Shown here one piece after another: positions 20,777 to 22,250 of a stretch of 64,000 nt of DNA (the first letter of the stretch is position 1; each line of letters opens with the position of its first letter). The notes under the pieces were generated by a model. It was given only the letters and a program-made list of their open reading frames with translations. It made no database searches and was not told the DNA's origin. The stretch is from Candidatus Versatilivorator sp. Lineage in GTDB: Bacteria > Acidobacteriota > Terriglobia > Versatilivoradales > Versatilivoraceae. Where the stretch lies: assembly GCA_965207735.1 (NCBI GenBank), contig OZ242296.1:3840001-3904000 (forward strand). Reading direction: 5' to 3'. The translations under genes were made by a program, and so were the position numbers.

Positions 20777-20805
20777 CGGTTCATCCCCGCGCCCGCGGGG
20801 AACAG
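20777..20805 (-). CRISPR. Solitary type I-E CRISPR repeat
   Basis: cggttcatccccgcgcccgcggggaacag, 29 bp with hairpin ccccgc/gcgggg. Confidence 0.75.
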
Positions 20806-20853
20806 ATGGTTTAGTGGTTTGCGAGCGATTAAATTGGGGAGTGAAGCGATGGG

Positions 20854-22152
20854 TTGACGGCCCCGGGAAACCGGCGCCGAGCTGGCGCTGGGAAGGGGGC
20901 CTTTGTGTCCGACAATTCGAGCCACGTTTCGAAGTCCACAGGTGAGGTGGGAATCTTGGGGGAATTGGTTGTCATTTTTTTGCTCTGTCTTGCTTGGTTT
21001 GCTTACTGCATTTATTCTGAGTTTCGAGGATCTCCTTTTGAAAGGAGACGTGCCCGAAAACATGCCCAAAAAGAGGCAGAGAAACGTGCCAAAGACTACC
21101 CATTACATTGGGCCATTGAGCATGGCCGCCTAAGAGAAGTTGAGTCCCTAATGATGTCCGGGGCCAGCCTAAACACACGAGACGAGCGGGGTCAGACCCC
21201 ATTACATACGGCGGTGGATCATAACCGTCCGGAAGAGGTCAAATTTCTATTGAAGGCTGGAGTAGATCCTAACGCGAGGGAGTCCCCAGGATCTCTTATC
21301 AAGCAGGAGTACAACACGGAACCGGCGAAACTGAACGAATGGGGTCCGGCCGCTCTGCATAGTGCCGTGTGGCATACCCGTAACCTCGACATCACCACCG
21401 CGCTGCTGGATGCTGGGGCAGACCCCAACATGCGAGCCCATTTTGACAGGACTCCACTTCATAGTGCGGTCCCGCCCTACGAAACACATGAGACACGTGA
21501 AACACAAAAAGCTATTGTTCGAGCCTTGGTCAAGGCGGGAGCCAACCTGGAGGCACGCAACGAAACACATATGTGGACGCCGCTACACGAGGCAGCGCAG
21601 CAATCGGCCACAGCAACCAAGGCGCTGTTGGAGGCTGGAGCCAACGTTGAGGCGCGGTGCTACGACGGTTCGACCCCTCTACATTTGGCGGTATCGCCTC
21701 AGCTAATGTATTCGACCCCAAATCTAGCAGCCGCCAAGGTCCTGCTGGAGGGAGGAGCCAACGCCAACGCACGAGACAAGCGGAATCGAACCCCGCTGCA
21801 TCAGGCAGCAACCGACCGCATTATCCTTCATCGGTTGCTTGAGCCTCTACTGGAGGCTGGAGCCAACCTGGAGGCACGGGACAATCAAGGTCACACTCCA
21901 CTTCATCTAGCGGCAGCTGATTGGGACATCTCTACGGTCGAGGCCCTGATCAAGGCTGGAGCCGAAGTCGAGGCACGGGACAAGGAAGGACGTACCCCGA
22001 TTCATCATGCGGCGGCTAGATGCTTTACCTCCGCATTCGTGGCGCTGGTCAAGGCTGGAGCCGATCCTGACGCGCGGGACTTCTACGGTAAGACCCCAGG
22101 CCGCTTGGCGCATGACGGGTTGTTTGCGGGAGGGGGCGAAATCCTACGCTAA
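20854..22152 (+). CDS. Ankyrin-repeat protein with N-terminal TM (start possibly GTG 20947)
   Basis: About nine TPLH...AGANxxAR repeats. Confidence 0.92.
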   Translation: MTAPGNRRRAGAGKGAFVSDNSSHVSKSTGEVGILGELVVIFLLCLAWFAYCIYSEFRGSPFERRRARKHAQKEAEKRAKDYPLHWAIEHGRLREVESLMMSGASLNTRDERGQTPLHTAVDHNRPEEVKFLLKAGVDPNARESPGSLIKQEYNTEPAKLNEWGPAALHSAVWHTRNLDITTALLDAGADPNMRAHFDRTPLHSAVPPYETHETRETQKAIVRALVKAGANLEARNETHMWTPLHEAAQQSATATKALLEAGANVEARCYDGSTPLHLAVSPQLMYSTPNLAAAKVLLEGGANANARDKRNRTPLHQAATDRIILHRLLEPLLEAGANLEARDNQGHTPLHLAAADWDISTVEALIKAGAEVEARDKEGRTPIHHAAARCFTSAFVALVKAGADPDARDFYGKTPGRLAHDGLFAGGGEILR

Positions 22153-22221
22153 GCCGGCGCTGGCTAGGCGTCGCGGTCCAGGCACTCCGGTGTTTTGTTT
22201 TGTCTGCCACTATTTGCCTCA

Positions 22222-22250
22222 CGGTTCATCCCCGCGCCTGCGGGGAACAG
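22222..22250 (-). CRISPR. Solitary type I-E CRISPR repeat
   Basis: cggttcatccccgcgcctgcggggaacag; 28/29 identical to the copy at 20777 and in the same orientation. Confidence 0.75.

Follow-up and report, generated by a model that had tools for sequence, protein, structure and literature searches.

An ankyrin gene between two type I-E CRISPR repeats in Candidatus Versatilivorator, and long inserts between such repeats across its genus

Two 29-bp direct repeats lie 1,416 bp apart in the 64,000-nucleotide stretch of Candidatus Versatilivorator DNA analyzed here (the window), at 20777–20805 (repeat 1) and 22222–22250 (repeat 2), both with their crRNA sense on the minus strand. The two copies are identical at 28 of 29 positions, with the sole mismatch, in repeat 1, confined to the hairpin loop, and the same 7-bp hairpin, composed of a short GC stem and a 4-nt loop, is predicted for both. 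Contigs assembled from the short reads of run X1, possibly the source sample of this genome, cover 20421–22144 and 22122–23350 with 0 mismatches and span each repeat together with its flanks. Therefore, the arrangement is not a misassembly, and the repeat pair described in an earlier note on this DNA was recovered at the same coordinates. Between the two repeats, the order of elements is a 25-nt piece, ankyrin-gene DNA, the end of a Tn3-family transposon, and one spacer length of sequence. No Rfam family reached its gathering score at the locus, and searching by E-value gave weak chance matches only.

The ankyrin ORF (20956–22152, plus strand) encodes 398 aa with a hydrophobic N-terminal segment and about nine ankyrin repeats, both judged by eye. 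It belongs to a block of ankyrin-gene DNA that includes 125 bp upstream of the gene (20831–22115, plus strand) and is about 97% identical to a 3,142-bp contig from run X4, which matches about 20831–22116 and differs outside this range. The X4 allele is longer inside the gene by 198 bp, corresponding to two ankyrin repeats, and the 30 nt upstream in this contig are neither the 25 nt of the window nor a repeat; no joint of the X4 contig to the repeat was found among the matches listed at that contig's depth. The gene had been described as complete, and its reading frame is indeed open, but the C-terminus has been exchanged for residues derived from Tn3. The two closest homologues (91–94% identical) end with 22 residues that are missing here, and in their place are 11 others, the last of the ORF, which are read from a Tn3-family terminal inverted repeat (38 bp, 22116–22153, no strand assigned) whose outer end abuts the ankyrin gene. 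Elsewhere in the genus, the same 38-bp motif is located at the 3′ terminus of Tn3 transposase genes, as with a PF01526 fragment in L026, and Tn3 ends have the form GGGG...TAAG. A remnant of the transposase 3′ end follows (22154–22191, minus strand), and the similarity stops at 22191; an X4 record matching 22125–22191, with unmatched letters beyond, marks this limit of Tn3 similarity.

Each end of the insert is formed by a short piece of different sequence. The last piece before repeat 2 (22190–22221, no strand assigned) is 32 nt long, the length of an ordinary spacer, and overlaps the Tn3 remnant by 2 nt, such that the distance from the end of Tn3 similarity to repeat 2 is 30–32 nt (31 counting the C). 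Searches of viral contigs, of metagenome contigs, and of the genus gave neither an exact nor a near match to it, apart from one 22/23-nt look-alike in the congener G011. The 25-nt piece next to repeat 1 (20806–20830, no strand assigned) is absent from the other allele, the upstream sequence of the X4 contig being different, and a search for homologues found none. This piece is likely the remnant of an ordinary spacer, of which a 33-nt unit would extend 8 nt into the ankyrin DNA; the comparison was made with one contig (X4), from which the true donor may simply differ. Donor DNA is thus flush with neither repeat, the remnants being 25 nt on the left, with its one comparator, and 30–32 nt on the right. 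Judged from these alignments, at least three sources contributed to the mosaic insert. Viral and metagenome contigs and the genus likewise gave no match for a donor of its two ends, and a search for an intact source phage returned weak matches only. A scan of 20447–23323 for consensus promoters found 0 with 0.6 expected, and the ankyrin gene may still be expressed.

On the left, the unit is flanked by accessory small genes that follow an OmpA-domain gene (18280–20776, no strand assigned) and include an HTH protein with phage-family matches; this flank is interrupted by an IS at 18960–20446 (minus strand). The right flank (22251–23323, minus strand) consists of a 132-bp gap and then the 3′ part of an IS-cut gene with a weak trypsin-domain match, and is bordered by a second IS copy at 23324–24810 (plus strand). 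A 4-bp target duplication around the left IS marks it as an independent insertion, while the right IS has none and points to a later rearrangement. A composite transposon made of these two inverted copies was considered and rejected on account of this pattern, in which no target duplication encloses the pair. The same 1,487-bp IS is present in 43 near-identical copies in the genome, with 4-bp target duplications, four of them in the window (2354–3840, 7997–9483, and the two flanking copies), and its spread is a recent burst. The OmpA-domain protein (14773–18270) carries a PKD-like domain and seven tandem 78–80-aa repeats, the number of which seems to vary among congeners. Group II intron domains (Rfam RF02003, RF00029) are located elsewhere in the window, at 33075–33917.

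The repeat was found at up to 2 mismatches in 9 of the 14 genomes of the genus set, which comprises the genome of the window (G000) and 13 congeners. Repeat 2 is identical to the repeat of long arrays in G004 and G005 that lie beside an eight-gene operon in I-E order, cas3-cse1-cse2-cas7-cas5-cas6e-cas1-cas2, in which Pfam confirmed cas1, cas6e, and cas7 only and the remaining names follow from order and motifs. This confirms the I-E family proposed in the earlier note, and the placement of the leader and cas2 in G004 and G005 fixes the minus strand of the window as the crRNA sense, antisense to the ankyrin gene. The absence of cas genes and of an array, previously remarked for the window, extends to the entire genome, which is one contig and 100% complete: no Cas1 or Cas6e match was detected in G000, tblastn with 12 congener Cas proteins gave 0 matches, and no CRISPR array was found genome-wide, where two tandem repeat clusters have look-alike units. 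At G000:C1:5001700-5002150, six short direct repeats lie about 72 bp apart with related spacers, a similarity that argues against a CRISPR array. At the ankyrin locus there are no regular 32–33-nt spacers and no terminal leader; the sequence beyond repeat 2 does not match the G004 and G005 leaders, and the flanks of the repeat-bounded unit are neither leaders nor spacers. The unit cannot act as a CRISPR in its present host.

Allowing up to 6 mismatches, a genome-wide search of G000 yields 11 repeat-like copies, of which 9 occupy the same position in a single family of tyrosine-integrase elements. The earlier note had named a genome-wide dispersed REP as the observation that would overturn its reading; with only 11 copies, 9 inside this one element family and without many free-standing intergenic copies, a REP element is ruled out, and the repeat in G000 is a carried CRISPR relic. 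The copies within integrase elements include two in the window (6288–6316 and 10345–10373) and 7 further sites in G000, and the usual order in these elements is repeat, 32-nt spacer, and a repeat look-alike inside the duplicated integrase 3′ end. A second integrase-element family, with a different spacer and the same look-alike, is present in G011 and G005.

The CRISPR-cas island of G004, G005, G008, and G013 occupies one chromosomal site that is empty in G000 (G000:C1:4136480-4136488), about 270 kb from the ankyrin locus. The island of G002 is reduced by microhomology deletions to a remnant containing part of the 864-bp insert seen in G005. In G013 (L013:9734-9800), the last repeat is joined via 31 nt to the middle of cas3, with the leader and the other cas genes lost. 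A chain of I-E repeats with long inserts in G008 (L011:7960-8017) leads straight into another array with a 36–37-nt repeat, which adjoins a cas operon with Cas7, Cas1, and Cas3 matches. The newest, leader-proximal spacers of G004 and G005 (L015, L014) match the chromosomes of several congeners with 0–4 mismatches, mostly without an AAG PAM.

Looking for other genes flanked by this repeat, as had been suggested, showed that the ankyrin locus has counterparts: at least 14 inserts of 94–1,930 bp lie between these repeats or those of a second I-E variant in 5 of the 14 genomes, and several enclose whole genes. The lengths are 1,416 and 316 bp in G000; 850 and about 870 bp in G004; 94 and 864 bp in G005; 161, 1,930, 597, 1,151, and 413 bp in G008; and 898, 245, and 173 bp in G013. 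This count omits an IS-filled 4.4-kb gap in G004 and a 9,756-bp interval spanning the cas operon, and includes G008 inserts that share a 1,043-bp duplication, kin genomes not being independent. The same loci hold 148 ordinary spacers, and in intact arrays the long inserts sit leader-distal. Five inserts contain whole DUF29 genes (four ORFs Pfam-confirmed), and others carry phage tail genes or small whole ORFs. The insert ends are variable and fall inside genes (a tail chaperone, an integrase, cas3), and the congener repeats break phage genes. The clearest case of repeated capture is a 72-aa gene that the same two repeats enclose in both G000 (G000:C1:1110603-1110918) and G008 (L012:5757-6170), pointing in opposite directions in the two genomes; the two inserts have different ends, and each has bases missing from the other. 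A DUF29 segment likewise occurs in opposite orientations, with different ends, in G004 and G013. Flanking by the repeat is not a property of either gene class. It was absent, at up to 6 mismatches, from all 72 loci of distant ankyrin relatives (28–44% identity) and present at 1 of 20 further DUF29-region loci, some of them overlapping. Outside the genus, 127 intervals from 5 metagenome loci that carry the exact repeat (two being the same array) contained no long insert.

To examine the junctions, the 70 nt beside each long junction were aligned to repeat-free homologues (71–93% identical) using the 28-nt repeat, with two G012 rows omitted, one because its terminal repeat is degenerate and the other because it is a chance match with 8 mismatches. 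Of the 25 rows on the PAM side, a repeat-free homologue extended to the junction in 8, representing 6 independent events: three C|TT (an AAG PAM), one T|TT, and two neither. For the ankyrin locus itself, searches of viral contigs, metagenome contigs, and the genus gave no homologue of either junction. The probability of 3 of 6 C|TT is ~5e-5 at the genome CTT frequency of 0.0136, or 1.4e-3 when only the TT is counted in 3 of 6. On the opposite side, donor DNA reaches to within 4 nt of the repeat at 7 of 26 junctions. In the 850-bp insert of G004, donor DNA directly adjoins the repeats at both ends, with no PAM at the junction. An AAG PAM for this I-E system is weakly shown: the last spacer base is C in 65/67 and 29/30 spacers, CTT is present at 1 of 2 mobile-element protospacers, and 2 chromosomal matches lack CTT. 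In E. coli type I-E, the AAG PAM is cut between AA and G (PMC10011333). Gene conversion between two spacers and a target was also considered; a CTT at nt 33–35 of the insert occurs in 1 of 26 rows, which is the chance level, and this route is therefore ruled against.

A second class of junction has about one spacer between the repeat and the foreign DNA. It comprises the G005 864-bp insert (31 nt), the joint into cas3 in G013 (31 nt), the two integrase families (32 nt), and the ankyrin locus (31 nt including the C, and 25 nt). With the integrase families left out, a distance of 30–32 nt is seen in 3 of 10 such junctions (P ~0.004, post hoc). Other partial alignments ended 9, 9, 10, 19, 42, and 63 nt from the repeat and fit neither class. 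Taken as a sequence signature, the PAM-exact junctions on long inserts support the action of Cas1-Cas2 on long DNA in this genus.

The reading that we prefer, to which we assign a probability of about one half, is that the locus began as an ordinary mini-array, that mobile DNA took the place of its middle through Cas1-Cas2 action and repair at the repeat edges, and that the array was then orphaned. An ancestor would have carried the I-E system found in congeners. Given a long fragment of phage, plasmid, or transposon DNA, Cas1-Cas2 would use one end of it to attack the edge of a repeat, and this one-ended integration would join the donor flush to the repeat and free a spacer end, while the other end would be closed by a second Cas1-Cas2 attack or by microhomology repair. 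The resulting junctions would be either flush with the repeat, and PAM-cut on the PAM side, or one old spacer away, and the ankyrin locus would present the spacer-separated kind at both ends. The Tn3 insertion would have clipped the ankyrin gene before or after the array replacement. The unit would now be inert as a CRISPR. Weighing against this reading, IS elements and microhomology deletions are abundant in these genomes and can end near repeats by chance, and our literature search found no biochemical report of kilobase integration by Cas1-Cas2.

The most probable of the alternatives is a clean two-ended capture, in which Cas1-Cas2, acting like a casposase, put one long fragment flush between duplicated repeats and the mosaic either pre-existed in the donor or arose from a later Tn3 insertion and deletion. 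The near-perfect repeat pair speaks for it, a repeat duplicated on both sides (28/29) being what Cas1-Cas2 acquisition leaves, as do the flush and PAM-cut junctions of congeners and the G004 850-bp insert, flush on both sides; a short tail is also what would remain if a deletion followed a Tn3 insertion. However, that G004 insert has no PAM at its junction, and two coincidences would be needed here, with donor divergence beginning 25 nt inside one end and the deletion ending 30–32 nt inside the other. We rank clean capture below replacement of the middle and consider it unlikely because the remnants at both ends require these two coincidences; it is the spacer-sized separation of each repeat from the foreign DNA that favors the latter. 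Thus, the capture of a gene-sized fragment by Cas1-Cas2 suggested in the earlier note finds support in the PAM-cut long inserts of congeners, but not in its clean two-ended form at this locus. Next in probability, and also unlikely, is decay independent of Cas proteins, by which transposons and microhomology rearrangements moved an ankyrin-Tn3 junction into an old array, the ends near the repeats being due to chance or to the hairpin. The Tn3 end within the insert, the 43 copies of one IS, and the microhomology deletions of the G002 cas island are all in keeping with it, and most of the long spacers described from other species resemble transposons (PMC4524480). However, the outer Tn3 end abuts the gene rather than array DNA, and the PAM-cut junctions of congeners would be left unexplained.

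Cassette exchange, in which a one-repeat circle recombined into another repeat by homologous or integrase-driven recombination with the repeats as att sites, appears improbable. The G008 and G013 chains do mix repeat variants, repeat relics reside in tyrosine-integrase elements, and a phage integrates into type II-A repeats (10.1101/2020.10.09.333658). Against this, no single-repeat empty allele with both flanks was found in four sequencing runs, whose contigs drop rare variants, or in the 13 congeners, where the sequence following the OmpA gene was different in each one compared; the listed alignments that skipped the insert had sides of <30 nt and came from arrays of other organisms. In addition, the inserts have no fixed ends, terminating inside genes, and the X4 allele has no repeat upstream. 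The repeat-mediated exchange put forward earlier consequently drew no support from the empty-site search. Least probable is a functional RNA role, as paired RNA anti-CRISPRs (Racr) or through Cas6 cutting of an antisense transcript. The 7-bp hairpins are intact and the left flank carries phage-like small genes, but the genome has no cas6 or other cas gene, viral contigs contain 0 exact matches to the repeat, the promoter scan was empty (weak evidence, given 0.6 expected), and the repeats of congeners break phage genes. Both RNA-based suggestions of the earlier note, Cas6 processing and paired Racr elements, are therefore left without a Cas partner in this genome, and Racr is not supported, in that a Racr is a solitary repeat in a virus, while the repeats here are paired and had no exact match in viral contigs.

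Beyond the single locus, the preferred replacement of array middles connects to a broader and more tentative proposal, which we hold at somewhat less than even odds: that canonical I-E Cas1-Cas2 integrates PAM-cut ends of 0.1–2 kb fragments in nature, and that the repeats serve as sites of gene capture and gene flipping, where in this lineage whole genes of phage, plasmid, and host-interaction types accumulate and persist after the cas operon is gone. DUF29, the 72-aa gene captured twice in opposite orientations, and the ankyrin protein would be examples. The ankyrin cargo may matter to its host, by analogy, because sponge-symbiont ankyrin proteins can alter phagocytosis (PMC13747020). If the proposal is true, CRISPR arrays would also provide a path for acquiring genes horizontally and for rearranging DNA locally, and gene-sized DNA would be within the capacity of the integrase. 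Cas1-Cas2 is generally regarded as a ruler that gives spacers a constant length. In work on adaptation, it is common to retain 33-bp spacers only (PMC6282206), so long products would be missed. Our search of openly accessible papers, supplements aside, found none on PAM-cut kilobase inserts or kilobase acquisition. The PAM-exact junctions on long inserts provide a sequence signature that is testable at scale and in a laboratory strain.

Several known systems bear comparison with the locus. In casposons, a Cas1-family enzyme leaves a duplicated target around long DNA; here there is no casposase, and the insert has no terminal inverted repeats. RNA anti-CRISPRs are solitary repeat units, and resemble the present locus in that repeats lie away from arrays and near phage-like genes, but differ in that the repeats here are paired, in a host without Cas, and not found in viral contigs. 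Tn7-like transposons of cyanobacteria reportedly integrate into CRISPR repeats. Phage AP1.1 does so as well (10.1101/2020.10.09.333658). With both, genes end up between repeats; unlike the inserts of this genus, which are variable-ended and lack a recombinase, these elements bring an integrase or transposase of their own and end at fixed positions. Long spacers of 100 nt or more are known from E. coli, P. aeruginosa, and S. thermophilus arrays and are mostly transposon-like (PMC4524480). The ankyrin locus resembles them in having long DNA between two repeats and a transposon end. The inserts of the genus, in contrast, are pieces of phage, plasmid, and accessory genes, some of them PAM-cut, and the Tn3 end is turned toward the gene rather than the array. 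E. coli type I-E acquisition is comparable in its repeat of the same family, its 32-nt spacers plus a last base from the target, its AAG PAM, and its attack at both repeat edges via a half-site intermediate (PMC10011333). The ankyrin locus departs from it in its 1,416-bp mosaic insert, in having no leader or cas genes, and in foreign DNA that is not flush with the repeats. By itself, the single ankyrin locus is a decayed relic, and it is the junction signature of long inserts across the genus that lends itself to testing.
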